Source of the DNA: Azolla caroliniana
Taxonomy: Eukaryota; Plantae; Polypodiophyta
DNA: 64,000 bases
Reading direction: 5' to 3'
Assembly (NCBI GenBank): GCA_043228905.1
Contig: JBHGNT010000018.1
Coordinates: 2,108,001-2,172,000, forward strand
In this document: positions 9,981 to 44,877 of the stretch, one piece after another
Position numbering within the stretch: the first letter of the stretch is position 1
How the letters are laid out: every line of letters begins with the position of its first letter
Position numbers and translations under genes: made by a program
Notes under the pieces: model-generated
What the model was told of the DNA's origin: nothing
The model's database searches: none
The model's input: the letters and a program-made list of their open reading frames with translations, nothing else

Positions 9981-11859
9981 ACACGAACCGGTTTTCTCCA
10001 GCATTTGTCCCTCTCTGGCGCATGTTGCTGGATGTGCGGTTTGGTGGGGGTGGATGTCGTGAAGAAAACCAGGCTTAGGCGGAATCGGTGAAAAAGGTGC
10101 ATGAACCGGCCCTTACGCGGAGAACAGGTAGGCTGATGAAAATATACTAGGTAGTACAGATTTATTAGCTAGGAAATCGATGTCTATCTCTGTCCGAAGG
10201 GACAGAGAATAAAGATGAAGTATTCGGGATGTGACGACCCTCCTCGACGACCGATAAAAGGAAAGGGGAGATGGCTAAAAGGGGATGGTGTTTTGGCAAG
10301 GACGAGGTGTTGTCGAATTGGGAACCGAGCTCTCTCCTCCTCTATCGTTGTTCTCTGTGGGTTTTGGGTCGGTTGCCTCTACTTTGAGGAAAGCCCTAGT
10401 GCTTCCAGTAGAGGCTCCACTATGTGCGTGTGTGGTTGTGTTGTCACCTATGGTGGGTCTGTTATCAGCTTACCGGTTGTAATCTTGCAATCTCTGTAAT
10501 TATTTCCGTCTCTCGGTGTTTTCTTGTGTGATTCCCTTTCATTATTGGGTGTGTGCACGTCTCTCTTTCTTCTACATACGCGGTCGTGGTTTATTCACCG
10601 GCCAGAATCTCTCTCTTCGATCTCTTGCACTCCTCGGTCCAAGGCCCCTGCGGTCCCGCCCTAGTTTCTCACGCATAAGCGAAACAACACAACATCGGTA
10701 CATCCACATATGCTATGCTACCGAAGATCCGAAGGTGCCTCAAATTCGGCTTCTGCCAGAAATATAGCTTATGTGCTGACACCTTGTCACCGATCCGGTT
10801 TTGGATGTAGACAGTCGTCTGAACCACCTCAGCCCAGTAGAATCTGGGCATGCTCTTCTCCTCTAGCATTGCCCTTACCACGTCGACAATCGACCGTGTG
10901 TATCAGCAGCTAAATTCTCTCCAAATTCCGTTATGTTGCAGATATCTGTTGAATTGGCCGGAAAAGTATTTTTTCCCGTCATCCGACCGCAAGCACTTTA
11001 TCTTCCTCTCTGTTTCCCTTTTGACTAAGCTTTGAAGGTTCCGAAAACAGTCGAAGACTTCGCTTTTCTTCTTTATGAGGTAGATCCACGTGTGTCGGCT
11101 ATAGTCGTAGATGAAGGAGACGAAATACCGACTCCCACCTAGACTAACGTTCTATGCCGGTCCCCATAAATCCGAATGGATTAGATCGAGCTCGTTACGG
11201 CTTCAGTTTTGTTTGGTGGGGAATGGAAGCTGGTGTTGCTTCCCGAGTTTGCAAGCTTCACATATTTGGGTCTTCCGGCGACTGAACTGTTAATGTTTTA
11301 GGGTTAGGGTTAATATTTATGATAATGATGATGATTGATGATGGATTAGCGATGGGGATGCAAATGGTGAATGTTACCGGCCGGCAAAGGAGTCCAGAGT
11401 GGGAAACGGAGAGTTATTTAAGTAGTAGGAATGTGGTTGTAATTAAGCTATGAGTGTGGACGGACAGACCGGAAACGGTATGCCGTTCCGGATCCGGACC
11501 GATCCCGAACAGGTGCGGATGGAACCGTTTTGTAATACAGACCGGAAACCTATTTAAAGGCCCAGATACAATGTAATCAAGGGCGGTTAATTAATGAAAG
11601 CTTAAGCGTTGTTATCTCTCTATGTTAATTGCCGTTCTATCTTAATTGTTATATCTTATACGTGTGTTGTGAAAGACGATCATAATAAGTAACTTAATCA
11701 AGTAGGATTAAGCGTTGAGGCAGATCCGGTTGCCGTAACACCCTTTGGGGAAGTGTCTTCCGTAGACACCCTGTGTTAGGCCATTGTCCGGCCCTAAGAG
11801 TTAACACAGTTTTTGTCGACCACGATTCCTGTTTTTGCAGCGAACGACGGCACGGATGG

Positions 11860-14800
11860 ATGTCTAGATCAACACACGACCTGGTTACAGATCGAACTTG
11901 ACGCTTTGCCGAAAGGCAAAGGAGACGCGAGGCTTTCCAGCAAGCGACGCAGGAAATTAGAGCGGATCGCTCATTTTTCAACATAATCTGGAGAGTAGCA
12001 GAGAACTCCCTCTGGTTACAGCAAACATCGCACCCGGACGACAGCAGCAGCCTAAGCAGCCTCCGGGAAACCGAATCCCTTCTCCACGCGTTGGCAAACG
12101 GAGAAGGCGAAGCAAAAGCCTTTTCAGCATATGAATCAGACTCCGAAGGGGAATACAGCGTGCACACGAACTACCGTAGCAGCAACGAAACCCCGGGCGG
12201 ACCGGAGGACGAAGGATCGGATACCTTACCGACACCGGAACCGGAAGTGCTAACGCTGGAACCCCCGAAACCAGCAGAGGAAGAGCGACCTCCGACACCG
12301 GAAGTCGAAGAGGAGAGGCCTTCGTCACCAAAGGAAGAGGAAAAACAACCGACGCCGGAAACAAATCGGGAAAGACCACCAACGCCGGAGAAAATTCCGG
12401 AACGAGCACCAACACTAACAGCCCGCGCACCGATACCGGACGACGACATGCCGTTCCAGTACTCCAAGTATAGAGATGATCCGGACGCGGAAGCTCATGT
12501 GCACGCCTTTGAACAGACATGGGAAGCCAACCATGTGTCCCAGCGATTGACCCCGGAGGAAGAAGAACGCTCTAAGATAGCGGAATTTGGCGTCACATTG
12601 GAGGGACCGGCAGCAAGATGGCGCCGGACGCAGGACCCGTCTACCATCAACACCTTTGCAGATTTAAAAGCTAAATTCTTGCATTTTTTTCAAAAGGAGG
12701 TGGACCAGACCATAATGGTAGGCTTATTTTATACCATCCGGCAAGAGGCAAGGGAGAGCATTCCCCAATTTGTCATCCGGTTTCAACGGATGCATAGTCA
12801 GCTTGCCCGCGCACCCCCGGAGGAATTACGGACTATATTCCTAAACGCGCTCCGGGAACCTCTACGCACGGTTTGCACGGTAATTGACTTCCGCACAAGT
12901 ACCATCGACTAGGTCATTGACCGGGTGAGAGAGATGGAAAAGACAAACTCCTGGCTCACATTGGGAGCACTTCAATGGGCATTACCGTCCGATGAAGACC
13001 TCCGGTTTCGGCAAGCAATACAGTGCACAACCTACTTGAATTCCGGACACTCAGCACTAGAATGCACTATGAGGACGCAATGTGTAATCTGTCAATCCAA
13101 GAGCCATACGACGGATAGGTGCGAGTATAATCTGTTGAACCGGCAAGCACCGCCCGTCCGACAAATTGAGCCACGCAACAGCCGGGATGAAGAAGACGAA
13201 CGCTGGCGGCGAATGGACCGCGACCGACCGGCACAGGATGTCCGGCATGGCGATCGACGGGAAAATGATGTCCGGTACGGTGATCGGCGGGATAACTATG
13301 ACCGGCATGATCGGTACCAGGGTTACAATAAACGATACGAACATTACGATCGGGAGCACTCCCCCGGGTATCGTCAGCAACGGGAGGAATACGGCAGATA
13401 TAACGGGCCACCCCGTCAAGAGTACCGTAATAAGAAGAGCTATAACAAAAAACGGCAATTTAAAAAAGGCGGCTACCCCCGGGATTCGGAACAAGGAGCT
13501 CCAAGCAACCAACCGGTACAAAACCCCGCGCGTACCGCAGGACCTGCCCCGGGTACAACAGACAATGCCAAATCTAGCAATACCCAGAAAGCCTACTGCT
13601 ACTACTACCGACAGGAAGGCCATTATAGTAACCAATGCCCGGTGAAGAGCTATGAAAAACGACCGGCGGTAAATATGGTAGTCCCTGAGGTGGCAGATCT
13701 GCAGCAGGTGACCACAAGGTCGAAGGGCATGACCAAGGAATGGGAGACGCAGGAGACCATCCGGAAACAAGCAACGGAATGGGTAAAGAAAGCAAACGAA
13801 CAGAATGTCACAGACTTACAGCGGCAAAAGGAGAACACCGTAGGGCTTGCCGGTTGTAGTCACTCCAAGAACGAGACATGGCAGGCGTTGCAAGAGTGCC
13901 AGATTACGTTGCCACTAGGAAGACTCCTACAACTCGTGCCAAGATTCACAGAAGGACTGAAGACGGCCATGACGGCAGGAGAACCATCACCGGCACCGGT
14001 ACTCTTCTCGAATCCAGAGGAGGGACCAACAGTGGTGGACACCAGCAGTCCGGTAATCACTGCCATTGTAAAAGGGAAAGAACTCCCCGGCACAGTTATA
14101 GACGGAGGCTCTGGGGTGAATGTAATAAGCCTCCGGACGTGTGATGCCCTAGGAATCCACGATTGGGAGCCATGTCCGTTCTGGTTGCGGATGACCGATA
14201 GAAGCTCAGTGTGGCCGACAGGATTAATACGGAAATTAGAAGTCACTGTCGGCGGTCATACATTTTACATCTCGGTCGTAGTGCTACAATTACAGGCACA
14301 AGGCGCATACCCGCTATTGTTGGGGCGGCCATGGTTGAAAACGGCACATATCAAACAGAATTGGCTGAAAAATATAATTACCTTCCGGCGAGGAAAAGCC
14401 AAGGTACGGGTACCAACACAGCCAAGGAGGAGCACTGGCAAGGAGTGTACACCGTTGTATGCGGAATGCGTCAACATGCTAGAAGGGTTAGCGGACGAAG
14501 AAGAAGCTCAGTACCTGCAGGAAAACCCGAAGATCATACCCCTCTTCGAAATTGCCATTGCCGAAGCAGTAGCACCATACTTACCGCAACCGGAAGAGGC
14601 TGAAGCAGAACCGGATAAAGACGCAATCCGGGAGTTACGGCAAGCGCAGGAAGCGTTGGAACGGGAAATGGCCGTTTCACAGCGCATGAAAGCGTCGCAA
14701 CTGGAAGAGGTGAACCTAGGCACCACGGACGAAGCAAAACCGGTGCACATCGCCAAGGAGATGAAGTCCGAAGACAAAACGGCGATGATCACACTTCTCA

Positions 14801-17478
14801 CGGAATTCCGCGATGTGTTTGCCTGGTCATACGAAGATATGCGAGGACTTGACCCTCAATTATACCAGCATCAGGTGCACTTGAGCAAGGACGCAAAACC
14901 AGTGGCACAAAGACGGTACCGGATGAATCCCAATTATGCCGCCAAAGTCAAGGAGGAAATCGACAAACTGCTAAGAGTTGGCTTTATCCGTCCGGTAAAG
15001 AAAGCGACATGGCTGAGCCCGATCATAGTCGTACCGAAGAAGAACGGAAAAATTCGAGTTTGCGTGGACTACCGGAAACTCAATGCGGCTACGGTAACGG
15101 ATGCGTTTCCACTTCCGTTCACAGATGGAGTGTTGGATGCCGTCGCCGGCCATGAGGTCTATAGCTTCCTAGACGGATTCAGCGGGTATAATCAGATCCG
15201 GATGCACCCCGACGACCAAGAGAAAACAGCATTCGTCACCGAATGGGGGGTCTTTGTGGCTGTGGTGATGATGTTCGGACTCAAAACGGCACCGGCAACA
15301 TTTCAACGAATCATCATGGAAATCTTTGGTGAATATATACCGGCTTTTATGCAGGTTTTCCTTGACAATTTCGCCGTCTATAGCCGGGAGGAGGACCATT
15401 TTCAGCACCTCCGTCTTTGTCTAGAAAAGTGTAGAGCGTACCAGCTAAGCTTGAATCCATCAAAGTGTGTATTTGGCATGTCCAGTGGAACTTTATTAGG
15501 ACATATTGTGAGCCAGGAAGGTATTGCAGTCGACCCGGACAAAGTGAAAGCCATATTAGAAGCACCGGCGCTAGCAATGGCAAAGGCATTAAGCCGGTTC
15601 TTAGTCCAGATCCGGTGGCACAGCCGGATGCTCCGATACTTAGCCGACCTGGCTACACCGTTGCATGCCGCCGTACATCGGACACCATTCCAGTGGACCG
15701 ACACCGAGGATAGAGCGTATAGGGCCCTTAAGGTACTATTGTCGCAGGCACCGGTAGTACAACCTCCGGATTGGAGTAAAGAATTTCACGTGTTCGTAGA
15801 CGCCTCCGACATCGCAATCGGAAGCGTACTTATGCAGCTTACGGAGCCAAAATGGTACCGGCCAGTGTACTATGCCAGCCGAAAGCTATCCCAAGCAGAA
15901 CGAAACTACTCTACCACGGAACGGGAAGCTCTAGGGATGATCTACAGTGTGACAAAGTTTCGGCATTATTTATTGGGAAGTTTTCCTTCCATGTAGATCA
16001 TTCGGCACTCCTTTACCTGGTGTCCAAAGCGTCACTCACCGGCAAATTGGCCCGGTGGACCTTACTGTTACAGGAGTTTGAGTTTGAAATATTCCACCGA
16101 CCCGGTATACAGCATGTTGTGGCGGATTACTTAAGCTGATTAGAGTCCGGAGAGACGGGTGACGGAGTAGCGGATGAGTTTCCGGATGCAGAGCTGTTTC
16201 GAGTCACTACGGAGACAGTAGCAGATGAGACAGTGGCACAGGAAGACAAATGGCTCACAAATATGCACCAGTTTCTGAGCACAGGACTGCCTCTGGAAGA
16301 GATGAACCGGGACGAACGGAAACGCCTGGCGGTGCAAAGCTGACATTTCTGCTTACTGCAAGACACACTATACCACAAGGGCGCGGGCGGCATATGGAGA
16401 CGGGCGGTGCGCAACGATGAAAAGGAACTGATACTGAGGGAAGCCCACTGCGGAGTTGCCAGAGGTCACTATGCCAGAGATGCGACGGCTAGAAAAATAT
16501 GGCAAAGTGGCCTATGGTGGCCAATGACATTAAGAGATGCGGTACGATACGCAAAAGAATGTGACCTATGCCAGAGAATGGGCCAGCCAACGGAGCAAGC
16601 TCGTATGCCACACCAGCCGGTACTACCACTCGAGCCATTCCAGAAGTGGGGGCTGGACTTTGTAGGACCCTTCAAGCCACCGGCAATGAGAACGGGTAAT
16701 CGGTACGTCATCGTTGCTACGGATTATTGCACGAAATGGGTGGAGGCCAAAGCATTAAGGGATAACACCGCTGCGTCAATGGTGAAGTTTCTATATGAGT
16801 ACATCTGGTGCCGTTACGAATGCCCAATTGAATTAATAAGCGACCAAGGGGGGCACTTTCTCGGCCAAGTAGTGGAAAGCCTGACGACATTCTATGCCGT
16901 TGTACACAAACGGAGCACACCTTACTATCCACAGGCGAACGGTTTAGCGGAATCAACGAACAAGACGCTCCAGAATATCCTTCGGAAGATCTTCAACGAA
17001 AACCAGACGGATTGGGACACAAAGCTACATAGCGCACTTTGGGCATACCGGACGGCATACAAAACGAGCATCCGAACAACACCGTTCCGGTTAGCGTTCA
17101 GACTAGAGGCGGTCATGCCGGTAGAATTCCAAGTACCCAGCTTACGGATCCAGCTACGGGAACGGTTGAACGAGAAGGAGTCGGAGGCAATAAGGTTGAC
17201 AGCGTTGTGTGAGCTCGAGGAACAATGACTGGCCAGCATCCTACATTTAGAATTGGAGCAACGGCGACGGAAAGCATTTGTCGACCGGCACAGGAAAGGT
17301 AACGAAAAAATGTTCGCAATCGGCAAACCGGTGTTAGTATTCCACACCCGGATGGGCAAGATGCTGGGTAAACTACGGTTTAGATGGACCGGACCGTATT
17401 GGCTAACACGGGAGTATAATGGGTCCTACCAGTTAGGGACACTTGCCGGCGAAGTGCTAGGCAAATGGGTCAACGGCG
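11860..17478 (+). pseudogene. Gypsy gag-pol single frame (gag, zinc knuckles, PR, RT, RNase H, DDE integrase), lightly disrupted
   Basis: ATG 11860 is in frame with ORFs 12091-12912 and 12925-15996; PR VIDGGSGVN; RT RVCVDYRKLN, FLDGFSGYNQI, VFLDN; RH VDASDIAIG; INT KWGLDFVGP, YYPQANGLAES; WTGPY. A few stops and one frameshift near 15980. Confidence 0.93.
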
Positions 17479-17838
17479 AAGTTCTCACACATTGTCAATT
17501 TGATTTCGCGTTGATGAGGGTTGCATCATTCTTCGCCGCGTATCATTCTTCGACTCCGTCTCCAAAGGGGGTATCCCATCGTGGTCACCAAAAGGTGTTG
17601 TACGTTTTAGGGTTAGGGTTTGATAATGATAAAGATAGGAATAGGGTTAGCAATGATGGTAGATTGATAATGAATGTGTGATGATGAGAGAGGACGTGAA
17701 GAACAAGACAACCATTGAGGGGTGGGGGGTGGTGCCTAGAATGGCTCCACCCCCCTCCCAAGGGGATTCAACGTTAAGGGGGAGAGAGAGAGAGAGAGAT
17801 GACAAGAGAGAGAGAGAGAGATTAAGAGAGAAAAAAAA
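17479..17838 (-). mobile_element. Captured fragment of a type-B element (R-U5, PBS, 5' leader)
   Basis: 17596-17838 matches the LTR-B segment at 11288-11371 plus 19286-19465; PBS TGGTGACCACGATGGGA 17574-17590; leader matches 21510-21560. Confidence 0.82.
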
Positions 17839-18295
17839 TCCGCCTGTGCCTTGTAATGCGTCAATTGCCTTTGATATGTGCTTTGTAATTTCTGCAATAT
17901 TGTTGACGCTCTCTCTTTGTCTTCCTGTTGCTGCCTCTGGAGCTCCATCCGGAACTTCTCCGCCTCGTCCAAGCGTCTTGTATTTTCCGCCCGTCGTCAG
18001 ATCAACGCACGGCTCAAGCAAAAGACGGATGATTTTGAGCACCTGCACCGGAACTACAAACGGCTGGAAACGGAGCATAAAGAACGGATGGCCGAGCTCC
18101 AGTAGGCAGTTGATCGGGCTGAGACGGCGATCGTCGACGAACGGGCGGAAATACAAGACGCTTGGACGAGGCGGAGAAGGTCCGGATGGAGCTCCAGAGG
18201 CAGCAGCAAGAAGACAAAGAGAGAGCGTCAACAGTATTGCAGAAATTACAAAGCACATATCAAAGGCAATTGACGCATTACAAGGCGCAGGCGGA
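17839..18295. repeat. Inverted repeat, arms about 160 bp, spacer about 135 bp
   Basis: 17839-17998 is the reverse complement of about 18136-18295, with a few mismatches. Confidence 0.9.
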
Positions 18296-18896
18296 GGACA
18301 ACGTCAAAATCATCAAACAACTGAAGGAGGAACGGCAAGCGGCGAAAACCAAATCGCAATTGGGAACGAGCCGGATTCAGTCCATCCTCCGGGCATGGCT
18401 GAATCAGACAAAACACTTGATTGATGAAAGCTCCGTAAAATGGTGGACAAAGTGGGCACAAAATGCGGCAGAACTCCAGTTGCTACGGGCGGATGTGGCA
18501 AACCGGCGGAAGGAAGGAGATGATTGTTATACGTTGACTTCCGAGGACTTCACCGCCATACGGGACGAGCTGGCCGATGACTTCCAAGTCCTGGCAGATG
18601 AACAGCTGGCGCAGGTCAGGCAGCTCGTAGCTCAGCTAGACGATGATAGGCTGGACGCTCAAATCCAGTTTGAAAGCTACGAGCGGTCCCGGGTGCGGGA
18701 AGAAAAAGCACGGGAAGCGGCAACGGTTAACCTTAGTGATGAGGAACCGTCGCCGGCTGAGGGCCAGCCGGGAACCAGTCAACCGGAGACCACTACGACG
18801 CAGGGAGCAACGACGGAGACGTCGGTGTCAGAGCAACAAACGGAGGAGCAGCCGCAACAACCACCAACGAACCCGCCGCAACAGACATCAACATAG
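17998..18896 (+). pseudogene. Extra 3' ORF of the Gypsy element, coiled-coil-like protein (N-terminus lost)
   Basis: ORF 18162-18896 (244 aa, E/Q/K/R/A-rich) extends upstream across one frameshift and one stop (INARLKQKTDDFEHL...). Confidence 0.6.
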
Positions 18897-19387
18897 CAAC
18901 AACAACAACAACAACCACTTCCAGATGAACCATTGGAGCCTCTCGAACAAAGCATTCTGGACAGATTTTGGCGACCACGAAACTGTGTTAACAATTAAGA
19001 TATAACAATTAAGACAGAACGGCAATTACACAGAGAGATAACAACGCTAAGCTTTTATTAATTAACCGCTATTCATTACATTGTATCCGGGCCTTTAAAT
19101 AGGTTTCCGGTCTGTATTACAAAACGGTGCCATCCGCACCTGTTCGGGATCGGTCCGGATCCGGAACGACATACCGATTCCGGTCTGTCCGTCCACACTC
19201 ATAGCTTAATTACAACCACATTCCTACTACTTAAATAACTCTCCGTTTCCCACTCTGGACTCCTTTGCCGGCCGGTAACAGTGAACGACATGATGGTGAG
19301 AGAGATCATGAAGATGTTCACAAGCGTTGAGGGGTGGGGGGTGGTGCCTAGAATGGCTCCACCCCCCTCCCAAGGGGGTTCAATGTA

Positions 19388-19438
<51 letters not shown>

Positions 19439-21039
19439 TGACAAGAGAGAGAGATTGAGAGAGAAATGATCCTTGTTTCATTCATTCCCCATAAGGGGTT
19501 AAATAGGTACAAAAGGGTAGATACACAAGGGTGCAAGCCCCTTGGTCATTCACACCTAGTCACTCACTGACACCTCTTTGTATCCACCACACTCAAACTT
19601 ACATTCACACTCATAATCGTATAACATTACACATACATATCAACGCATCACATCTTTCACCCTCACTTATCACACTTATCAATCACCCGTACATCTCGTA
19701 CGATAACACAATATGGCACGCCCGTGGGAGAGTGCCTTGCACATCGATCCCACATGCCTTGATTATAATCTTTCTTCGACCGGAACTTACATCGGTCGTC
19801 TCAACGATCGACTCCCTCGATCGGAGCGCTTGACTCGAACATCTCCTTCGGTCAGTGACTTCATCGACATGAACATTCCCATTCTGTCGTTTCACGAACT
19901 ATATCATGGGTCCAAAATCGCGTCGTTTGTATGTGTGTTCCTCCTTGAGTTGTTGTGAGTTGGGTGTTGATTGATTCCATTTCTTTTAGCTTCATGTGTT
20001 TTCGAAATTCCGTAGGTGCCCTTCGATTTTTAAATTTTAATTATGTACCCTTATGTTTATGAAATTTGCTCGTTATGTCCTTAGATTATTAAAATTTTCA
20101 GAATGCCATCATGTTTTTCGAAATTCTTCGGATGCCCTCAGGTTTTCAAAACTCCTCGAATGCCCTTATCATTCTCTTTTTCCCTCTTTTCTCTTTTCTT
20201 TTTTCTTCTTTTTCTCTTGCTTTTGTCGTTTCCCTCCTTTCTATTTGTCTGTCTCCTCCAATTCCTTCCTTCTTCTTATTCTTGTTTTCTTCTTCTTCAA
20301 CGTCTCTTTCCCTTCTTTTGTTTTGGTGGTAGCTTTGGGTCATCTTCCTATCTTTCTTTTCCTTTTCTTTGTTCTTCCACTGCTAATGGTGTTTTTCCTT
20401 CCTCTTCCTTCTCTGCCTATCCATGTTTCTTTTGTCTTTCTCTTCTTGATCTATTTCTTCTTGTTTCTTATTCTCTGTTTCTCACTGTCTTTTGCTTGCT
20501 TCCTCTTTATCCTTTCCTTGTACGGCGTCGTTTACCGTTCTTCGTCATTCATCACTTCGTTGTCCATCTAGGTCGACGTCTCTATCTCCATCACTGGCTG
20601 CTAATCCGTTGACGTTGGTGTCGCCTCCTCTCGGCCATTTGGCCCTGTCCGGTCGGTCTCTTTCCAGTGTTCGACCCTCGGTTTGGCCACCACTTTCCGG
20701 CCTCTCTAGCCTTTTCCGTCTATGTCTTGGCCATTGTCCCGTTGGCCTCTGTCACTGTCTCTGTCGGTTTCCATCCGTTTGAGTCCGCCTATGTTCGGCC
20801 CGTTTGACCCATCCTACTGTGTCTTGTGTCTTTTTGGTCTCCTTTGTCTAGTGCATCCGACCGTGTCTTTCTAGCGTTGTTGGTTGATGTCTGGTCTCCG
20901 TCTGCATCTCCATATCCGTCTTCTTCAACCCTTCAATGTTAACCGACTCGGGTTCCAGTTCCAATTCCGACTCTCTCCGCATTTCTTCTTCTCGAACCAT
21001 ATCTTGTGCATTCTCAGCACATCCTGCCGGCATCCACTC

Positions 21040-21213
21040 TGTTACAGGCATGACCATATAATATCCCGTGGTGAGAATTTACCGTAGCATTCTCACCACG
21101 GGAAGTAATCCTCCCCTTCTTTACACTCTTGTTTAACCCTCACACTTATCCACGTGTATAGAATGCTACGGTAAATTCTCACCACGGGATATTATATGGT
21201 CATGCCCGTAACA
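21040..21213. mobile_element. 174-bp foldback element with 54-bp TIRs, TGTTAC...GTAACA ends and a 5-bp TSD
   Basis: TIRs 21040-21093 and 21160-21213 (1 mismatch); TSD CACTC at 21035-21039 and 21214-21218. Confidence 0.85.
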
Positions 21214-23711
21214 CACTCCACACACTACTTCTTCCTCCGCAGTCTCCTGGTGGGCTTCTCTTTCCAGTCGTGTTGACACCGGTTCCCTCTGTGTCGTTGT
21301 TTGTCCAGTCATGCATTTTGCACCATGCTTTTGAAAACACACACATTGTCATTAACCGCACACTTGAACATACGTTTGTTGCGTATCCTTTTGTGATGTC
21401 CTCTCGCACAACATCACCGTGTTGCATTCCTCGACCTCGATGGCTTCCAATCAATATCACCATTTCCTACACATCGTTCATTTGATTTCTCGCACATTTC
21501 GTCATTGCCATGTCTTTGCCGCGTAGTAGTCTTCGACTTCGTCTCGAAAGGGGTGTCTCCTTAGTGATCGCCAAAAACTGTGTTGTTAATCCTGGCTGGA
21601 CAAGCCACTAACACAGGGTGTCCCTTTGGAACACTTCACCAAAGGGGTGGTACGGTAAGGAATGTGCAAACCGTAATACAAAACCTATCCTTCCCGGTTA
21701 CTATCCAGAAAGATTAACTTGATACACGCGTATGATAATCACATTAAGCACAAAACGGCATTAACAAGATAAACAATACGTAAATCCACAACACTTCTCT
21801 ATTAATTATCCGTTGTTAATTACATCGTTTCCGGATCCTTTTATAGGTATCCGGCTGTGTTACAAACCGGTGCCAACCGGCAACCGGCTACGAACCGGTC
21901 CAGATCCAGATCGGCATATCGATTCCGGGTCCGTCCGTCCGATCTTATAATTATCATAATTTATCTAATTACAACTCCCAAAACCGGCTCCCCGTTCATA
22001 CTCTAGCCTAACCGGCCAACATAAACTTCGGCAATCCGAACACAACTTGTTTCGATTGCAAATCTTGAAGCCTTCGGTAGTTGACGTGGCCGATACACTT
22101 ATGCCAGAGATCGATGTCCGATTCAATCTTTTGTACCTTGGCAAACATGGCAATGCCAACGTCATTTGTGTTGAGGATGAACATCCTCCCTTCTCTGCGC
22201 CCTTGCGCAATTATCCGGCCTTCTTCCTCGATTAAGCACCCGAGGTGCGTAAACTGCACCTGCATTCCTTGGTCGACTATTTGTCTAACCGATACCAAAT
22301 TCTTTGTGATAGTCGAAATGTGTAATATGTTCATTAGCTTTCACTTTTGTCCGACATGGCTTAAAGGGATTTCTCCGACATGCACAATTGGGTGAGGGGT
22401 GTCGTCTCTGGTTTCGACAATCCCCGGTTGTTCTTATTTCTCTAAAAACGAGAACCACTCTTCATGGCTCGTCATATGGTTAGATGCTCCAGAATCAACG
22501 TACCACACTTCCTCCGACCCGGTTCGGTCTTCTTCATCGAGTTGGCCTTGTGCTTCATCACAAAGGTTGGCCCCTTTCCGGTCTTCCGGGTTCCGGATCC
22601 TTCCGATCCTTCTGCGTAGTGCGAGCTTTGTCGATTTCCCTGTCTGGTCTTTGCCGAATCCCGATTTATCCGAATCGGCGCGCTTCTTCCAACACTCGCT
22701 TTCTCTGTGTCCTTTCATGCCACAATACCAACATTCCGTGTCGGCCTTTCCTTGCCGGTTTCCAGCACTGGCATGACTCCCCCTACTTGTGGAGTGTCCA
22801 GAACTGCTGTCTCTATGCCCTTGGTTCTGCTCTTGCCAGCCACCTCCACTGCATGCCGACCCACATCGTCCTCCACGCCCACAGGGCCGATCCGCCTCCG
22901 TGTACAACATATGTTTGTCCGATTGAGTGGTCCTTGACCCACTCCGTGGTTTTCTTCGACCATCAACATTGATTGTAAGTCGAAGAAGGACGGTGGCTTC
23001 TCCCGAGTGCAAATTGTCGTTCGGATTGGCCCGTACCATTGTCATAAACCACCGAGACAGATCTGGACCATCTCGTCTTCTTCCACCGTTACGTTGATGG
23101 ATCCTAGAGCATCGTAGATTTCCTTAATCTTGGTGGTGTAGTCCGTAACCGACATATCTCTCTGTCGGATGTTGTTCAGCTCTTGTAGGAGCTGCAACTT
23201 ACGGGATGTGGTACTTGCGGCGAAAATCTTCCGTAGATTTTCCCAGGCCTCCTTTGGCGTTTTTGCATCCTTGATGTAGCCGAGCATCTAATCATGCACA
23301 CAGGACACGAGGCAATACAATACTCGGCTCCCTCCTTGCTCCCATGCTGGGAATTCTTTGTGTGCCAACTCTAGAGCTACCTCGTTAGTTCCTTCCACAT
23401 AGCTCCAATATCCATGCCCTAGTAGGTACTGGTGCATCTTATATGACCAAGATGTATAGTTGCTCCGATCGAGCTTTTCTGTAGGAAGTGAACTTGCCAT
23501 ACCTCTGTCCATCTTTGGTTCTCTTCTGTTCTTCACTAGGTGTTAGGGTTTGTCTTCGGAAGCGTCTTTCGGCTGCAGAGGAGTCTCAACCCTCACGCTC
23601 TGATACCATGAAAAAGCTAGCATGCGGAAGCTTGACAAAACTGGTTTAGCCGTGCAGCAACAAAGAATAGAAAACACAGGTTCAATGGAAGCTTGAGAAT
23701 AGTTAGCATAC

Positions 23712-25985: not shown

Positions 25986-26926
25986 TCTGCATAGCCTCTT
26001 GATGCTCCACACACTCCGATCTTCGATGCTCCAAACTGTCACACCATAAGCATAAAAAATCCCTACTCAGAAGAGTTCATTGCACTTGTGGCTGATGTTG
26101 CAACTTCGACATGGAAGAAATCTTCCACTCCATGAATTGTTTCACCAGCCTCTACGTCCCTTGGTTTTGTTTTCTCTATAGATGCCTCGATCCTTGTTCA
26201 TGTCCTTAAAGAGGAGGTCGGAGTAACATTTCCAGGTCCCTTCAAGCCTAGCCATGTCCGTCTTTTCTCATATCGAAGGCAGATGGACCGAATTCGGCTC
26301 CAGTCCTCCTCTAAACCTGTTTCGGATTCACCTTATTCCATCAGTTTCCCTAGCTCTACCCTATCTGCATAGGAAACCGAGCGAAGGAAGAGAACAACCT
26401 TCTCTGGTTAAAGCAAAGTTTGCTCCAAAACTTAGTGTTGTCAGAACTTTGCTTCAAAATTAGTAAGGGTCTCTAGAACTGACCCATGCTACTCCTCCGA
26501 CTCCACCCAAGCTTCAAATGTTCGTCGGGTCATCTTGGTGGAATCAACATAATTGAAAACACCAAGCAGATCACAACGGAATTCCTCCCAATCAACATCT
26601 TGCGTTTGAAGCTCTTCTATGATAGGAAGAATATCGGCAGCTACCACACGATGAAAGTTGGATTTCTTTAAATCAGCGAAAATATTGCAATGTAACATCT
26701 CCGCGTCAAACACCTGCAAAAATCGGGTCACATCCTTTCTAGTGAATGGACCTAACTTCTCTAATACCCCATCCACAGCTCGATCTAGGTTTAGACTCAT
26801 CTCCCTCCATGTGAGAAAGGTTGGGAGACAGGTCCCTCCGGATGGGAAGGGAGAAGAAGAGTGCTGATGAACATACTCGGTTGAGGCCAATAGGCCGAGG
26901 CCGATAGGCCGAGGCCGAAACCATAT

Positions 26927-27142
26927 GAGGAGTACCCGGCTACGGAGAGCCGGATGGTGCAGACCCGGTGAGAACCGGATGAGGAGTACCCAGCTACGGA
27001 GAGCCGAATGGTGCAAATCCGGTGAGAACCGGATGAGGAGTACCCGGCTACGGAGAGCCGGATGGCGTAGACCCGGTGAGAACCGGATAAGGAGTACCCG
27101 GCTACGGAGAGCCGGATGGTGCATACCCGGTGAGAACCGGAT
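26927..27142 (+). repeat. 54-bp tandem repeat x4 in U3 of the 5' LTR
   Basis: Unit GAGGAGTACCCGGCTACGGAGAGCCGGATGGTGCAGACCCGGTGAGAACCGGAT at 26927, 26981, 27035, 27089. Confidence 0.92.
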
Positions 27143-27681
27143 GACGAGTGCCCGGCAAGATCCGGATGATGCAGGCCCGGTGAGGAGCGCTCTCCGGATG
27201 AAGAGACATATTCGTAAATATGTTTCTGAGAGTCCATCGTGGCTATATTTGTAAATAGCCGAAAAGTCATATTAGTATAAATATGACTTAGGGCAAACTT
27301 TTGTGAGTGTTGTTGTTATTCTTGTCTACGCGAGATCAGAGCGCATAACTGTGTACATAGAGAGAGAGAGAGAGAGGAAGAGGTCGTTGCCTCAGTTGTA
27401 ACCGCCGCCTGTGGTGAAGATCGTGAGCACGAGGTCGTTGCCTCCGTGAACTCACTGTTGTACATTCTAACATAGTGATAGTTTGCATCCCGTGGGCTGC
27501 CGTGGTTTTTCCCTTAGTTTGGGTTTTCCACGTAAACATCCTGTGTACTCTTCTCTTCTTCGTGTCATGCATTCATTACCCGTTTTTCTGTGTATGATTC
27601 TAAGCTCGGTTGTGGTCGAGCGTTGTGCATACGGAGCGTTTAGTTCCCGTCAAGTGGTATCAAAGCGAAACGACACAGAAA

Positions 27682-30600
27682 ATGGACGATTCGTTGGGAG
27701 GCATGTTCAAGCTCACCGGCTCCAACTATTCGGTGTGGAAGTCGAAGATGAGGGACATGCTCGTGGTTAAAGACCTCTGGCTGCCGGTTCAGTTCGTGGA
27801 CAAGAGACCGGACAAAATCAACGCCGCAATATGGGAGGTGATGCACATGAAGACAACGGCGTACATACGGTGCTTCATCGACATGAGCCTGTACAACAAC
27901 TTCAATGAAGAGAGCAAGGCTCATGAGCTCTGGGAGAAGATCGGCATTATGTTCCGAAACAAAAATGTTGTCAATCAGGTTTCGATATTCTGAAAGCTAG
28001 TAAGACTCCGGTACCAAGATGGCTCCAGCATGGCGGAGCACATGAATGCCTTCCAGGGGTTGATCCACCAGGCAACATCATTGGAAGTACCTCTCGCCGA
28101 TGAGGTACTAGCGCTACTCCTGCTCGGTTCCCTCTCGGATAGCTGGGAGACGTTGGTTGTCACTTTGGGCAACACCGGGCCGGAAGGGAAACGGTTATCC
28201 CTAGCAAGAGTAAAGTCGAGCTTGCTAGATGAGGAGGCGCGTCGGAAAGATAAAGATACGAGCTCCGACTCCAAAGCGCTCCTTACCGAATCGGAACGCG
28301 GAAGACAAAGAAACCGTAGTCCCCAGAACTAGGAAAAGTCGGGGACACGGTCAAAGTCAAGGGGGAGACCTACTTGCTTCTATTGCGGCAAGCTGGGACA
28401 CTTCTAGAAGAACTGTCGGCATTTCCGAAAGGACAAGGAAACCGACGGTACCGATTCGAAGTGGATACCGGACCAGAACGGTAAAGACCGGAGGGGAACG
28501 GACCGGAAGGGGACGACGGCAATCGCGGCAAGTGAAGAAGAGTTCATGTTCATCACCGAGGAGAGTGAGATAAACCTTGCCGGCGACGAGATGACCTGGG
28601 TGGTCGACTCCGGAGCATCGTTCCACCTTACCTCGGACCGGAAATGCTTCTCATCCTACTCAGCCGGTGATCACGGCTGTGTCCGGATGGGGAATGAAGG
28701 AACATGCCGAATTGTCGGCATAGGAGACATGTGGTTGTCAACACCAACCGGTTGCAAGATGTTGTTGAAGCATGTCCGACACGTTCCGGAGGTTCTTCTG
28801 AACCTGATATCAGCCGGTCAGCTAGACGATGAAGGCTACATGGGTAGCATCCAGAACGGTGTTATGAAGTTCAGCAAAGGGAGCCTGATTGTGGCTCGGG
28901 CCTGGAAGGTAAACACGTTGTACTTGATGAATGCCCGGTTATGTCCGGAGGAAGTGAACGTGGCATCTGACACTACCGGTGAGCTGTGGCACAAGAGGTT
29001 GTGTCACATGAGCGAGAAGGGGATGAAGAGGCTTGCAGACGACAACCTCATTCCAGTGAAGAACGTGCACTTGGAGAAGTGCACTGATTGTCTGGCCGGT
29101 AAGCAAAACCGGACCTCCTTCCGACCGAGGCGACCGATGAGACGTAATGCACCACTGGAGTTGGTGCATACTGATGTCTATCAAGTGGACACGAAGTCAC
29201 ATGCAGGATCGCAGTACTTCGTGACGTTCATAGATGACCACAGCCGGAAGCTGTGGGCCACACCGCTGAGGACGAAGGATCAGGTGTTATACGTCTTCAA
29301 AGAGCTCCACGCAAGAGTGGAAAGAGAAACCGGCCGGAAACTGAAGGCGGTTCGAGCAGATAACGGAGGTGAATACCGGGGGCAGTTCGAGGAGTACTAT
29401 CGCTCGAAGGGAATCCGGCTCAATTTTTACCGTGCCAAAGACACCGGAACTAAACGGGCTGGCCGAGAGGATGAACCGGACCATAATGGAGAGGGTCCGG
29501 AGTATGCTAGCACATGCAAAACTACCCAAGGAGTTTTGGGTTGAGGCACTGTCGACGGCGACATATGTGATAAACAGATCACCCTCAGTACCCTTGGAAG
29601 GAGACACACCACACAGAGTCTGGACCGGTAAGGAAGTATCCTACCGGCATCTGAAGGTATTCGGGTGTCTCGCGTACGTGCATATAGCTAAGGACCGGAG
29701 AGGAAAGTTGGATCCAAAGACCCGTCCATGCATATTCCTCGGTTACGGCGACGATGAGTTCGACTACCGAGTGTGGGACCTGGTCGACAAGAAGGTATTC
29801 CGGAGTCGAGATATTATCTTCATGGAGGACAAGACGCTCGCCGACTAGGAGTCGGAGAAGAAGATAATGAACTCCGAGTCGACCGGTAAGCATCGATTCT
29901 ACGATGAGCAGACCCAACCGGCAAGAGACCGGTTAGCACTCGAGGAACCAGCCGGTTACGGTGAGATACCGAATCAGTAGAAGAAGAAGTAGAGGAAGCT
30001 GAAACCGGAACCGGTCAAGACCCCGAATCGGATTCGGATAAAGAGAAAATAGAGGAGCCGGTTACCGAAGCCCAGAGACGGAGATATCCTCTCAGAGAGA
30101 GAAGGGCCCCCCAGAGATTTCCGGATGCAGAGCATGTGCTGTTAACCAATGAGGGGGAGCCAGAAAGCTTCGAAGAAGCGAAGGATGACACCCATAGCCG
30201 CAAATGGTTAAGTGCCATGTAGGATGAGATGGATTCCCTGCATGAGAACCATACGTACGAATTGGTGGAGTTGCCAAAAGGAAAGCGGGCACTCCGAAAC
30301 AAGTGGGTGTACAAGTTGAAACCGGGAGATGCCGGCAACCCCCCGAGATATAAAGCCAGGATCGTGGTGAAAGGGTTCCAATAGAAGAAGGGTGTAGACT
30401 TCGACGAGATATTTGCCCCGGTAGTAAAGACGGTGCTGAGTATAGCGGCAAGCATGGACCTCGAGGTAGAGCAGCTACACGTGAAGACGGCATTCCTTCA
30501 CGGCGACCTCGAAGAGGAGATCTACATGCAGCAACCAGAAGGATTCGTGGAGAAAGGGAAGGAGCACCTAGTCTGCCGGTTGAAGAAGAGCCTCTACGGG

Positions 30601-31713
30601 TTGAAGCAGGCCCCCCAGCAATGGTACCGGAAGTTCGATTCCTTCATGGCCGATCAAGGGTACCAGAAGACGCAAGCCGATCACTGCGTGTTTGTGAAGA
30701 AGTTCGAAGGAGGCGACTTCCTGATACTCCTTCTGTACGTGGATAACATGTTGATCGTCGGACGGGACCAAGTCAAAATACGGATGCTGAAGAAGGCTCT
30801 CAACCGGACCTTCTCAATGAAAGACTTGGGTCCGGCAAGACAGATGTTGGGGATGCATATTATCCGGAACCGGTCAGTGAAGCAATTATGGCTGTCACAG
30901 GAGAAGTACGTGACAAAGGTGCGTCACCAGTTCAACATGTCAGATGCGAAACCAGTCGGATCGTCACTTCCGGCAAACTGCAGGTTATCCGGTAAGCAAA
31001 GCCCGAAGACGAAAGCAGAGAAGGCGGATATGATGAAGATTCCATATGCTTGTGCCGTCGGGAGCTTGATGTACGCAATGGTGTGTACCCGACCGGATAT
31101 AGGATACGCAGTCGGAGTGGTGAGCCGGTTTATGAGCAATCTCTGCAAGGAGCACTGGAACACGGTCAAATGGATACTCCAGTATTTGAAGGGCACTTCA
31201 AATATGTATCTCCGATTCGGCTCCGGAAAACCTCAACTTGACGGTTTCACCGATTTGGACATGTCGGCTGATGTGGATACCAGTCGGTCTACATCCGGGT
31301 ATGTAATGACATATGCAGGGGGAGCTGTTTCATGGTAGTCGAGGCTGCAGAAGACGGTTGCATTGTCAACCACGGAGGCGGAGTACATGGCGGCTGTGGA
31401 AGCCGGCAAGGAAATATTATGGATGAAGGACTTCATCAGAGAGCTCGGTATCCGGCAAGATGAATACCGGCTCTACTGCGACAGTCAAAGTGCCATCCAC
31501 CTTGCTAAGAATGCGGCCTACCATTCCCGGATGAAGCATATCCAGCGAAGGTATCACTAGATCCGGGAAAGAGTAGATGACCAGGAGTTGGCACTGACGA
31601 ACATCCACACGGCCGAGAACGGGTCAGATATGCTGACCAAAGTGTTGATACCCGACAACCTGGATGCATGCCGGAAGAGGATCGGACTAGTAAGACACCC
31701 CATGCCGGAGTGA
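27682..31713 (+). pseudogene. Copia gag-pol polyprotein, disrupted by stops and frameshifts
   Basis: MDDSLGGMFKLTGSNYSVWK; WVVDSGASFH; VRADNGGEY; CIFLGY; KTAFLHGDLEEEIYM; TRPDIGYAVG; STTEAEYMA. Confidence 0.93.
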
Positions 31714-31817
31714 AGGGGGAGTTTTTTGGGAGACAGGTCCCACCGTATGGGAAGGGAGAAGAACAGTGCTGATGAACATACTCGGCTGAGGCCGATAGGC
31801 TGAGGCCGAAACCGTAT

Positions 31818-32087
31818 GAGGAGTACCCGGCTACGGAGAGCCGGATGGTGCAGACTCGGTGAGAACCGGATGAGGAGTACCCGGCTACGGAGAGCCGGAT
31901 GGTGCAGACCCGGTGAGAACCGGATGAGGAGTACCCGGCTACGGAGAGCCGGATGGTGCAGACCCGGTGAGAACCGGATGAGGAGTACCCGGCTACGGAG
32001 AGCCGGATGGCACAGACCTGGTGAGAACCGGATAAGGAGTACCCGGCTACGGAGAGCCGGATGGTGCATACCCGGTGAGAACCGGAT
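31818..32087 (+). repeat. 54-bp tandem repeat x5 in U3 of the 3' LTR
   Basis: Same unit at 31818, 31872, 31926, 31980, 32034. Confidence 0.92.
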
Positions 32088-33099
32088 GACGAGTGCCCGG
32101 CAAGATCCGGATGATGCAGGCCCGGTGAGGAGCGCTCTCCGGATGAAGAGACATATTCGTAAATATGTTTCTGAGAGTCCATCGTGGCTATATTTGTAAA
32201 TAGCCGAAAAGTCATATTAGTATAAATATGACTTAGGGCAAACTTTTGTGAGTGTTGTTATTTTGTCTGCACGAGATCAGAGCGCGTAACTGTGTACATA
32301 GAGAGAGAGAGAGAGAGGAAGAGGTCGTTGCCTCAGTTGTAACCACCGCCTATGGTGAAGATCGTGAGCACGAGGTTGTTGCCTCCGTGAACGCATTGTT
32401 GTACATTCTAACATAGTGATAGTTTGCATCCCGTGGGCTGCCGTGGTTTTTCCCTTAGTTTGGGTTTTCCACGTAAACATCCTGTGTACTCTTCTCTTCT
32501 TCGTGTCATGCATTCATTACCCATTTTTCTGTGTATGATTCTAAGCTCGGTTGTGGCCGAGCGTTGTGCGTACAGAGCATTTAGTTCCCGTCAAGAACAA
32601 CTTCTAGAATTGATTGAAGTTGTGTTGCATCCATGTTTGAAAGAGATAAAATCCCAAAGAACTCGCTCTCCATGTCGCCTGTTCACATCGGGTTCACCAC
32701 ATGTCGCGTCAAAGAAATTGGCGTGTCCAGGTGGAACCACTAGGGTTCTGAACCAGGAGAGTGAAAATAAGAAGAAGGAAGGGAAGAGTAGGAAATCGAA
32801 CCAAAAGTATCCCAATAGCCACGAGTAGCTTGTAGTCATACCCGTGAAGACAAAAATCCTTGTATCATTCCACTGATGTAATGAAATTTAGTGTGCAGAC
32901 ACAGATTGGAAAGCCCTCAGAAAGAGATTTCCAATGAGCTATAGAGCGTCAAAAAGGGACGTCTGAATTAAGAGTTATGAATAAAACACCATACACAACT
33001 ACCCCTCAAGCACGGAAGAAGAAAGAATGCCAAATTGAAAATCTCTATTTCTCGAGAAGAAAAAAACCTTTACAAAATATGTCTCTTTGAATGTTCTAG

Positions 33100-37700: not shown

Positions 37701-40107
37701 CGCCCACTCTCGAAGTGGCGTCCATTGCTCCGTAGATATCAGCCTCATCCATGGCCGTCCTCTTTCCACAAGTCGAAAGGGTCGCTCGCTCCGCAACCTC
37801 TCCCACATCGTCGCCGTGGTCGTCCGCCTTGCCGCCGCCACCGTTCATTACCCTAAGTCTCACGCGGGCACTCGGGCCGGCCGTCGGGGTCTCTTGAACC
37901 GGTGCGTGTAAGGTAGCAACGCCGTCGCTCGTCGATGCTATGCCCGTAGCCACCTCCATTCGGACATCGTCGTCCGTGGCTACCCCGCCTCCGTATATGC
38001 AAGCATCAATTACGCTTGCCGCCTCCTCTTCCACGGTCTCCATACCGTTGTCTCGGTTGCCCGCCTTGCCGTCGCCACCGCCCGTCGCTCTAGGTCTCAC
38101 GCCGGCAATCGGGCCAACCGTCGGTGCCTCTAGGGCTGGTGTGTGTAAGGTCGTGGCACCGCCGCTTGTCTCCTCCTCCCTCGATGTTTCGGGCCGCCAT
38201 GTCCCGAATCCGTAGTTACCGGCCTCCATGGCCGTCCATTCGCCGCAAGACGAGAGAGTCGCTCTTTCCGCACCCTCTCCCACATCGTCGTCGTCGTGGT
38301 CGCCCGCCTTGCCGCCGCCACCGCCTATCACTCTAGGTCTCACACCGGCTCTCGAGCCGGTTGCCGGAGTCTCTAGGACCGGTGTGCGTAAGGTCTCGGC
38401 ACCACCGCTCGTCTTCTCCCCGCTCGATGTTTCGGGCCTCCGTGCCCGAACTTCCTCATGTCCGTTCAAATCGGCGATCGCCGCCTCACCGTCCCCGACC
38501 TCGTCCTCGGTCGATCTTTCTCCGCATGTCGAGAGGGTGGCTCGCTCCGCACCCTCTCCAGTGGTACCGATGTACCATTCTCTTTCGGCCTCCTCATCCT
38601 CCGATCGCCTCCGGCCCGAGTCCATAATAAGACCTTCTTCGGCTTCGATTTTCCCCTTCACAAGCTCGCATGCCTCCCGTATTAGTGCTTCTAGGTCGAG
38701 CTCCTCCGAACCGTTTTGCGTTGAGCTCTCTTCCGGCGGTAGTGCGTACCCACTCACCGCTCTCTCTTCTCCGCCTCTCGCGGGCCGTGTTGTGGCCGAC
38801 CGCCTCGCATCATGTTGCCGGCACACCCACCGATCGAACTCATGTCGACCTCTTCCTTCCGGTTCCGTGTACCCGTACGCCTCCAATAGGGCTCCCTCAA
38901 AGGACACCCACGACTCATGAGCTTCTCGTAGCTCCTTGACCTCCTTGTGCACCGATACGGCCGCCACTCGAGGAAAATACTCTAGCCGCATCGCCTCGTC
39001 TACGCCCCCTTTCGCCATCTCGGCCTTGTAGGCTCCCAAAAATCTTGGGACCTCATTCCCATTGAACCGGCCGACTCGATCGACCACCCATTCGACGGTT
39101 TGTTGAGCCGCATCTCGCTTCGCCATCTTCCGTCTGGCTTCCATCACGATTTTTGCCATCATCTCCTCGAAGTCGAAGTCTTCTTCCATCTCCATGCTCC
39201 CTTGCCGCCCTTCACGTCGGGTTCACCAAATATGTCGCGTTGTTACGCGCGTGCGTGGAGAAAGGCGGGACCACGGGGGTCTTGGTCTAGGGAGCGACGG
39301 AGCGTAGGAAGTCGTGCTTCACGGCTTCTGGGGCATCTCAGAAACACACCGGAAGCAACCGAAGGGGGGAGAGAGAGCGAGAGAGAGAGAGAGCGTGCTT
39401 AACACCGACTCACGCACACACGGCCCGACCCGACTTACGCCCTTATGTACAGGAAACGCAGGGAAGGAGTGGAGCACCCAACACCAACAAGACGCCAATA
39501 TACACAGACAGACGCAAACGTATATGTATATATATAGAGAGAGAATACATTCCCGGCTTCGAGCCGGACCAAGATGGTTTACAACAGTCGTCTGTTGTCA
39601 AGCCGCCGTCGGGGAGCTCTCGGGCTCGTCGCGCCGAGCGGGGTCTTGCACAGGAGACAAGCTGCAGCCAACCCTAAACGAACACGAAGGGGAAGAAGAA
39701 GAAGCAGAAGAACCCTAACCCTAAACCTACCGGTATACCCTCTAATCCAAAATGGGCAACCCCCACAATGGTGCCTTCTCTCTCCTTTTATAGCACAAGG
39801 AGGGAAGACCGCTTACAAAAGGTGAGACTAAAATATCCCCTTTCATTCAAAGGGGATATTTGCCTTGATTTGGGGGAGGGTGAGATTGATGGCCCCTTAA
39901 CTCCCACCTCCTCACAAACAACTAGGTACCTATGTACCGCATAGTACCTCTCTCTCTCTCTCTCTCTCGCGTGGATGTGCGTACAACCACATCACCTTTA
40001 TACCTTTATTACTATTACAAATACATTATGTACGTGTGCAACGTTGCACATTGCTCTTTGGCTCTCGTTGCTCGGGTTTCCGCTTGTGGACGAAAATCTT
40101 CACGACA
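34739..40107 (-). mobile_element. Non-autonomous, pol-less LTR element of the Trp group (5.4 kb)
   Basis: Near-identical LTRs 39233-40107 and 34739-35619; 18-nt Trp PBS 39211-39228; PPT about 35620-35636; TSD ACGT at 34735-34738 and 40108-40111. Confidence 0.92.
35527..39195 (-). pseudogene. Gag-like N-terminus fused to a long repetitive acidic/Gly-rich tail (about 1220 codons, one internal stop)
   Basis: ORFs 37519-39195 and 35527-37416 share one frame, separated by a single TGA at 37519-37521; the first ~125 aa match the gag of the autonomous copies (VGRFNGNEVPRFLGAY vs IGRFGGNNATSYLEAY). Confidence 0.65.
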
Positions 40108-44778: not shown

Positions 44779-44877
44779 GAGCCATTGTTGCCAAGGGTCT
44801 TGTGGTTGCACTCGTGGTTTGGTCATACTGTCAAAAATTGGACGGAGTGACGCCCATCCTAGCTCTTCACCCATGCG

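Follow-up and report, generated by a model that had tools for sequence, protein, structure and literature searches.

Among the non-chromovirus Ty3/gypsy retrotransposons of plants, the OTA group (Athila/Tat; Phygy, Selgy), most elements have a polypurine tract (PPT) (Neumann et al, 2019; PMC6317226). We analyzed a 64,000-nt stretch of the Azolla caroliniana assembly GCA_043228905.1 (contig JBHGNT010000018.1, here C18, positions 2108001–2172000; the whole stretch is "the window") that contains an element resembling OTA elements in its layout: gag, protease, reverse transcriptase (RT), RNase H and integrase in this order, TG...CA ends, a primer-binding site (PBS), a target-site duplication (TSD), and a large 3′ region with an extra open reading frame (ORF). 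Compared with the OTA elements in the parts of that paper used here, the window copy instead ends in two inverted U3 portions of its long terminal repeat (LTR) and has no 3′ LTR, and its family carries a tRNA-Arg(TCT)-like stretch at the place of the PPT. As judged by sequence comparison, this copy is a member of a recurrent, countable class of U3–U3 insertions. In the following, C-numbers denote contigs and L-numbers label element copies or loci.

Chimeric cDNA made from two co-packaged RNAs and integrated as a unit with a TSD was described by Sabot and Schulman (2007; PMC1950507), and the window element likewise has one TSD around a chimera of at least two templates. In the parts of that paper used here, the template-switch complexes have three LTRs and two internal regions, with the third LTR internal and the outer ones direct, an arrangement that the window element lacks. 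Its switch would instead reverse strand and replace the U5 end by a second U3; the word "inverted" is absent from PMC1950507. Aberrant reverse-transcription products of HIV-1 also integrate, including plus-strand strong-stop DNA that switched between two genomes, but the defective proviruses presented in the parts consulted have asymmetric direct LTRs that carry deletions, as well as inversions of internal sequence, and none is described with U3 at both termini (Joseph et al, 2022; PMC9278108).

Two further systems place coding sequence between inverted repeats. Ginger1 elements have terminal inverted repeats (TIRs) of 40–270 bp that start with TGT and surround a Gypsy-type integrase (Bao et al, 2010; PMC2836005). 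The inverted ends studied here also start with TGT and measure 287 bp in the window element, slightly over the Ginger1 range, and 75–276 bp in most other members. As portrayed in the parts of that paper used here, Ginger1 has a 4-bp TSD, lacks RT and RNase H and forms multi-copy families with shared ends and interiors, whereas the U3–U3 elements have a 5-bp TSD, retain RT (with RNase H in the window element), and are single copies made in one event. DIRS-1 is a retroelement coding region between inverted repeats that relies, in the portions consulted, on a tyrosine recombinase and an internal complementary region (Malicki et al, 2020; PMC7192593), whereas the window element has a DDE integrase and a 5-bp TSD. 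Pfam searches of the window element returned rve and H2C2 integrase matches and no recombinase match, and self-comparison revealed no internal complementary region, that is, no internal copy of the termini. The LTR-retrotransposon literature that we searched, with older virology and yeast papers and supplements lying outside that search, contained no description of U3–U3 inverted insertions.

The window element is a single insertion with two U3 ends

The right arm of the window element is the reverse complement of LTR positions 1–287 (11372–11658), with 10 substitutions and 2 one-base indels in 287 bp, and with 4 of the substitutions in the outer 200 bp (Table 1). LTR positions 288–428 (141 bp) are absent from the arm. 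Directly after a second, same-sense PBS (18969–18980), the last 7 LTR bases and the spacer appear in inverted orientation (18981–18992). A first-pass annotation made from the sequence alone had described an inverted left LTR with about four mismatches in its outer 200 bp, a loss of about 140 bp of U5, a perfect GTGAA duplication, and a second PBS with an inverted spacer before the right arm; our alignments bear out each of these features. The two flanks are colinear neighbors in 11 of 11 aligned copies of the host-type (family-B-type) LTR. Since the flanks are thus adjacent in one host LTR of family B, the element represents one insertion, with no target DNA lost.

Pfam matches in the window element follow the gypsy order (gag-PR-RT-RH-INT), the protease match being weak (E 0.073), and the gag-to-RNase H coding region is broken by a stop at 12910–12912 and by a frameshift in RNase H. 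The left LTR has a TATA-like box at LTR position 180 and AATGAA at position 222, with U3/R/U5 borders that are predicted, and the right arm has its own inward-facing TATA-like box. The copy has TG...CA ends and a TSD within the 4–6 bp range, and its LTR sequences are inverted where two direct LTRs are expected. It derives from a Ty3/gypsy family and is not a structurally valid member of it. The copy at this locus is defective and dead, and its family is an ordinary one with direct LTRs.

U3–U3 insertions recur in two sister families

The first 24 bases of the window LTR occur exactly 495 times in the genome, and all 10 siblings that we fetched have direct 435-bp LTRs, full ones being ~9.9 kb long. 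We call this parent family A. Outer U3 starts were listed by preceding base with TG-preceded starts excluded, giving 255 for family A; for a younger sister family, A′, 274 of 283 non-G-preceded outer starts were listed. Counting pairs within 25 kb, we found 7 facing and 0 back-to-back pairs in family A and 7 facing and 1 back-to-back in A′, or 14 against 1 overall (p=0.001). A perfect 5-bp TSD surrounds 4 of the 7 facing pairs in A and 6 of the 7 in A′ (10/14 overall); given the base composition observed in the flanks, a pair would show a 5-bp match by chance ~1 time in 650. None of three cross-family facing pairs has a matching TSD.

An eleventh case came from a random sample of 100 of the 213 remaining outer LTR starts of family A: 40 have a direct second LTR within 10 kb, 1 has an inverted LTR piece, 15 were scored as solo LTRs with a TSD (one of them, L071, is by eye a 5′ LTR), and 44 were left unresolved. 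There are thus 11 U3–U3 insertions with 11 different perfect TSDs in two families (Table 1). The listed cases make up ~1.6% of listed insertions in A and ~2.2% in A′. These shares are lower bounds because both ends had to match exactly, and the second LTR start matches exactly in only 18 of 35 normal elements. The smallest member is a 209-bp hairpin and the largest a full element to which an arm has been added; five of the 11 (window, C9, C15, C20, C1) have the integrase region between their arms. The first-pass annotation had allowed that the locus would be a one-off if other copies had direct LTRs and a PPT. The other copies do have direct LTRs but no PPT, and since 10 further independent U3–U3 insertions with their own TSDs exist, the window locus is not a one-off.

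Among 223 listed of the 244 outer U5 ends of family A, we found no TSD-bounded U5–U5 element; U5-outward candidates on C15 (one structure, duplicated) have no TSD and were set aside. A PPT-bearing control family gave 0 facing pairs within 25 kb among the first 100 of 158 starts, read by eye, with ~1 expected. Family B gave 1 facing pair among 100 of 108 starts. This pair, L202–L203 (C15:3447010–3463631), has a TSD matching at 4 of 5 positions and a copia element nested 56 bp into its left arm, and it is a possible further U3–U3 element. A short contig (L188, C597:1–1613) carries a sister-family LTR end, an 18-nt PBS, the 3′ half of tRNA-Arg(TCG) and an inverted LTR end, head-to-head; its polarity is that of the U3–U3 class, and its far end lies beyond the contig.

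Table 1. Features of the window element (window coordinates), U3–U3 insertions and tRNA-joined U3 starts elsewhere in the genome (contig coordinates).
Feature	Position	Strand	Basis
Host: left part of family-B-type LTR, insertion target	11288..11366	-	
Left TSD, GTGAA	11367..11371	.	flank match
Complete left LTR, 435 bp, haplotype like L011	11372..11806	+	
7-nt spacer and PBS for tRNA-Arg(TCG), one substitution in window copy	11807..11825	+	
gag (PF03732), weak protease (PF13975), RT (PF00078), RNase H (PF17917/PF17919)	11902..15996	+	Pfam
Integrase: H2C2 (PF17921), rve (PF00665), GPY motif after stop at 17226-17228	16344..17476	+	Pfam
Inverted piece of another LTR family (B)	17480..17834	-	
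Inverted 160-bp copy of the element's own 18136-18295	17839..17998	-	self-comparison
Normal 3′ internal region, with tail of extra ORF (18123-18896)	17989..18964	+	
Second same-sense spacer and 12-nt PBS	18962..18980	+	
Inverted LTR 3′ end and spacer, joined to arm via short slipped duplication	18981..18995	-	
Inverted U3-R arm (LTR 1-287), second family haplotype (like L078/L145/L153)	18996..19280	-	
Right TSD, GTGAA	19281..19285	.	flank match
Host: right part of same family-B-type LTR, far end not fixed	19286..19900	-	
U3–U3 with TSD, family A	window element; C3:15033778-15038971; C7:17169515-17173158; C8:18213164-18213927		
U3–U3 with TSD, family A′	C2:8519563-8525311; C2:13020248-13026009; C6:16970900-16971108		
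U3–U3 with TSD, family A′	C20:4916456-4923101; C15:8962400-8972406; C1:16319689-16340472 (junction in N gap)		
U3–U3 with TSD, eleventh, from random sample of 100	C9:16176460-16187374		
57-nt tRNA-Arg(TCT) with CCA, joined through TG to A′ U3 start (L176-L178, L207-L208)	C2:12004220; C2:12014872; C2:12017976		

The window copy is a mosaic

The window copy is colinear with normal copies from 11372 to 17476, where ~2.3 kb of normal internal region is missing, and again from 17989 until 18964, where it departs from the normal sequence ~68 nt before the 3′ LTR position, at a PBS-like stretch. The rearranged block pointed out at 17479–17998 in the first-pass annotation proves to consist of an inverted family-B piece followed by an inverted copy of the element's own 3′ region. 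The family-B piece comprises the 3′ part of the B LTR, spacer, PBS and ~90 nt of leader, is 95% identical to its best donor, and starts 30–45 nt downstream of the TATA-like box of B, close to where transcription is predicted to begin. Unlike the usual family-B PBS, the PBS in this piece (17573–17590) is an 18-nt copy of tRNA-Arg(TCG) with one extra A. A stop at tRNA position 58 is a signature of reverse transcriptase. None of the 8 other family-B-type PBS sites listed has the 18-nt copy with A at position 19, and one of these 8 is a longer tRNA read-through. Family-A PBS sites were scored as the 18-nt tRNA type in 4 cases, the usual type in 78 and others in 11, which allows for a donor that had a PBS of this form.

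Of 7 linked polymorphic sites, 5 distinguish the two arms of the window element; in 35 normal LTR pairs, the two LTRs differ at none of these sites (29 pairs) or at 1 (6 pairs). We therefore assign the left LTR and the right arm to different family members. This mosaic of two family haplotypes and an inverted family-B piece with a tRNA copy was likely assembled during reverse transcription. At least three templates would have met in one event, which would fit co-packaging.

Several side observations in family A concern similar joins. Copies L020, L092, L139, L145 and L146 have a family-A LTR followed by a family-B spacer, with L020 also carrying the B PBS and interior; these may be cross-family chimeras with one common tRNA primer. 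In L088, L098, L104, L112, L132, L148 and L156, the 5′ LTR and spacer are followed by 4–27 more bases and then a jump to an internal position or another LTR, as mis-aimed second-strand transfers, apparently frequent in this family, would produce. Internal inversions of 65 bp to 3 kb occur in L070, L076, L104 and L128.

Copy-back as the probable origin of U3–U3 elements

We consider it probable that the U3–U3 elements arose by copy-back, when the nascent plus strand jumped to a template of plus sense. In this model, a plus strand beginning at U3 inside the particle would leave its minus-strand template after 75–430 nt, pair by a microhomology of 1–13 nt with such a template, either genomic RNA or the top strand as it grows, and continue as minus strand; equivalently, a stalled top strand would copy a displaced plus-strand piece. 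The resulting linear DNA would have two normal U3 attachment ends and be pasted in by the element's own integrase like any cDNA. Its product is a predicted dead end, because its transcript would have no 3′ R for first-strand transfer; we also predict that it is transcribed from both ends or folds back on itself. Support comes from U3 starts at both termini, one 5-bp TSD, intact target DNA and microhomologies; moreover, the fillers are LTR-end, PBS and tRNA-copy sequence, and the window copy holds three source sequences. Of the two readings offered by the first-pass annotation, the one that invokes template switching during synthesis of an aberrant cDNA, followed by integration at two U3 ends, is supported. 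In all, 11 TSD-bounded insertions of this kind are present in the two families.

Junction microhomologies, read by eye from alignments, measure 1, 13, 7 and 4 nt at C3, C7, C8 and C9, and 11, 11, 5 and 3 nt at C2 (twice), C20 and C15. The arm usually resembles the LTR of its own element: all 6 A′ elements have 0–1 differences between arm and left LTR in 75–138 bp, one of them sharing a private 8-bp deletion, and 3 of the 4 family-A elements tested have the same haplotype at the 7 linked sites in both. In total, 9 of the 10 elements scored have an arm that agrees with their own left LTR in haplotype or by near-identity. The C9 arm, outside the haplotype scoring, differs from its 5′ LTR by 14 transition-rich changes in 428 bp. 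The two C2 copies independently use one 11-nt match of U3 to the minus strand of pol. They are 96.7% alike with no excess of shared derived sites, at different sites and with different TSDs, while LTR pairs in this family (A′) differ by 1–3 bases. Amplification of one U3–U3 element was on these grounds rejected as the source of the two. The 11-nt microhomology is native to pol, and it served as an arm junction at 2 of the 30 loci that were read and at 2 of the 100 places listed.

A model in which arms stop at the poly(A) site, that is, at an RNA 3′ end, was dropped as a general rule. In family A, the arm or its partner ends at LTR 250–287 in 6 of 6 junctions, downstream of AAT(G/A)AA at 222; A′ arms end at 75–149, which is upstream of the TATA-like box, and LTR copies with a poly(A) tail were not found. 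The 250–287 interval is thus at most a family-specific hotspot. A direct-orientation element, L059 (C17:13072472–13077678), has a left LTR consisting only of positions 1–264 (U3-R only), joined to the integrase region without microhomology, with its TSD, CAAGG, intact; an inverted duplicate of 2168 bp, 100% identical, is present 14 kb away and may be an assembly artefact.

Copy-back has to be weighed against joining by the host. In one such scheme, an integration complex would have taken its two U3 ends from two separate cDNA molecules and inserted them in concert, producing the TSD; the right ends, left free, would then have been fused by host end-joining, with trimming and the addition of fillers. 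We regard this as unlikely. It would accommodate the two haplotypes of the window arms, the second-family fillers in the middle, long sides that end anywhere from LTR position 132 to the 3′ LTR, and the short microhomologies, which suit end-joining. The agreement of arm and own left LTR in nearly all scored elements speaks against two molecules, and the fillers consist of reverse-transcription intermediates (PBS, tRNA 18-mer) and do not come from host DNA of the flanks; moreover, complete cDNAs predict U5–U5 as often as U3–U3 joins, and none was seen among the 223 listed ends, a weak point. Later rearrangement of a normal insertion, by inversion, by gene conversion or by repair synthesis that copied the left LTR into the opposite orientation, is very unlikely in our view. 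Such repair appears to have occurred at C19:11594288–11605094 (L057–L058, L172–L173), where an inverted LTR is accompanied by ~270 bp of flank duplicated in inverted orientation and one-ended integration followed by repair synthesis is the likely origin, and the family shows many internal inversions and deletions. However, the C19 route duplicates flank in inverted orientation and leaves no TSD, whereas 11 elements keep a direct 5-bp TSD that abuts the exact TG start at the inverted end; the haplotype of the window arm also differs from that of its left LTR.

The other reading of the first-pass annotation is a new type of retroelement bounded by TIRs, which would replicate in this inverted form either on its own or by means of a helper; we think it highly improbable. 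The architecture is common to eleven elements, two of which share a junction at different sites with different TSDs. Nevertheless, the PBS-to-inverted-spacer junction of the window occurs once in the genome, no further place among 40 scored spans window 18880–19060, the other junctions all differ, and the shared C2 junction sits on the pol-native microhomology in copies with the divergence given above. Sampled insertions of family A have direct LTRs in 40 of 100 cases against 1 inverted, and a replicating element is at odds with the ~2.3-kb loss, stops and gag-pol frameshift of the window copy. An assembly artefact seems less credible still. The 12 changes between the arms of the window element correspond to haplotypes that exist in the family, target DNA continues colinearly across the two flanks, and all 11 different TSDs are perfect. 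Such an artefact would find its basis in C1:16319689, one of the 11, whose junction lies in an assembly gap, and in the facing pair C17:13072472/13086412, which is a 100%-identical inverted duplication; together they show that the assembly does contain doubtful inverted structures, which counts against copy-back as well. So do the following points. Four of the 14 facing pairs (C19, C17, C8:14144493 and C8:10081645) have no TSD. Arm lengths cluster at 272–287 in family A and at 75–149 in A′, so no single stop site explains them, and the asymmetry of U3–U3 (4/255) over U5–U5 (0/223) is weak alone (Fisher p=0.13). Host end-joining, too, typically leaves microhomology and templated fillers, so that sequence alone cannot place the joining inside the particle. 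Apart from these points, among the Logan contigs listed for 17300–19500 and 18925–19070, from five runs that each matched fewer than half of the sequence words, none covers 18965–18994 or bridges the junction; such a hole speaks neither for nor against the junction.

The parent lineage lacks a PPT and is likely primed by a tRNA

The absence of a PPT, which the first-pass annotation had noted for the window copy, is true of that copy and is not peculiar to it: the whole of family A lacks a PPT before the 3′ LTR. Of 46 pre-3′-LTR sites located by pattern in fetched family-A copies, 33 carry one identical non-purine 20-mer (9 purines) that equals the 3′ end of tRNA-Arg(TCT) genes save one missing base. 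The family-A PBS has a 13-nt match to tRNA-Arg(TCG) genes. Elements of the Tat clade have an extra archaeal RNase H domain. In the frames scanned of the window copy, which lacks ~2.3 kb after integrase, we found no second RNase H family match.

At C2:12.00–12.02 Mb, 57 nt of mature tRNA-Arg(TCT) (positions 20–76, with CCA) lie before the U3 start of A′, in three near-identical copies of one event (Table 1). This stretch is 98% identical to the gene and includes the base missing from the element's own motif. It is likely, on these alignments, a fossil of a tRNA covalently joined to the plus strand. The plus strand in the A/A′ lineage is thus likely primed by tRNA-Arg(TCT) and not by a PPT, a feature that the U3–U3 class does not need. 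Priming by tRNA would make both element ends symmetric in priming and may raise the rate of U3–U3 products. Copies of 35–54 nt of mature tRNA-Arg(TCT) or (TCG) with CCA are also joined to the spacer and LTR ends of three families in L174 (C1:21120471), L185 (C6:13330253) and L186 (C10:5731125), and probably represent read-through past the usual 18 nt.

Implications

If confirmed by reads, these loci would mean that a measurable share of LTR insertions has inverted U3 ends that direct-repeat LTR finders miss, and that the integrase of these families accepts two U3 ends in vivo. Their junctions would record reverse-transcription intermediates, and the A′ locus with 57 nt of tRNA-Arg(TCT) supports tRNA priming of the plus strand. 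In the part of PMC2836005 used here, Bao et al (2010) call the path from LTR to TIR unclear and suggest two adjacent insertions in opposite orientation; U3–U3 loci offer a one-step route as an answer. Since they arise in one event, two neighboring insertions are not needed to place TIRs around an integrase.

With a promoter facing inward from each end, double-stranded RNA is predicted, which might trigger silencing of the family as a whole. In maize, Mu killer is a rearranged DNA-transposon copy with a hairpin transcript for which silencing was shown (PMC8224964, in the part used here). A transcript of the 764-bp C8 member from its left promoter is similarly predicted to fold into a long stem of ~65 bp (folding prediction, z −13), a putative hairpin. 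A wider proposal, which we hold to be quite doubtful, is that U3–U3 copy-back is a regular output of LTR reverse transcription (~2% or more of insertions), raised in a PPT-less, likely dual-tRNA-primed lineage. Members with integrase between short inverted U3 ends would then be ready-made Ginger-like TIR elements that integrase could move again or a helper re-copy, and short members would be "killer" hairpin alleles silencing their own family.

Other elements in the window

An old relative of the family-A LTR and PBS, 68% identical, lies at 21564–21940 (minus strand). Two minus-strand LTR elements have G-rich PPT-like tracts: that at 34739–40107, with 885-bp LTRs 97% alike, represents the PPT-bearing control family used above, and that at 40110–48319 has a ~690-bp LTR match 90% alike. 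A copia-like element at 26821–32595 has a PPT, 54-bp tandem repeats in its LTRs, and a PBS that we take to be of the initiator-Met type. Short inverted repeats at 55990–56322 and 21040–21213, with arms of 125 and 61 nt that are 93–94% identical, resemble miniature inverted-repeat transposable elements or fold-back elements.

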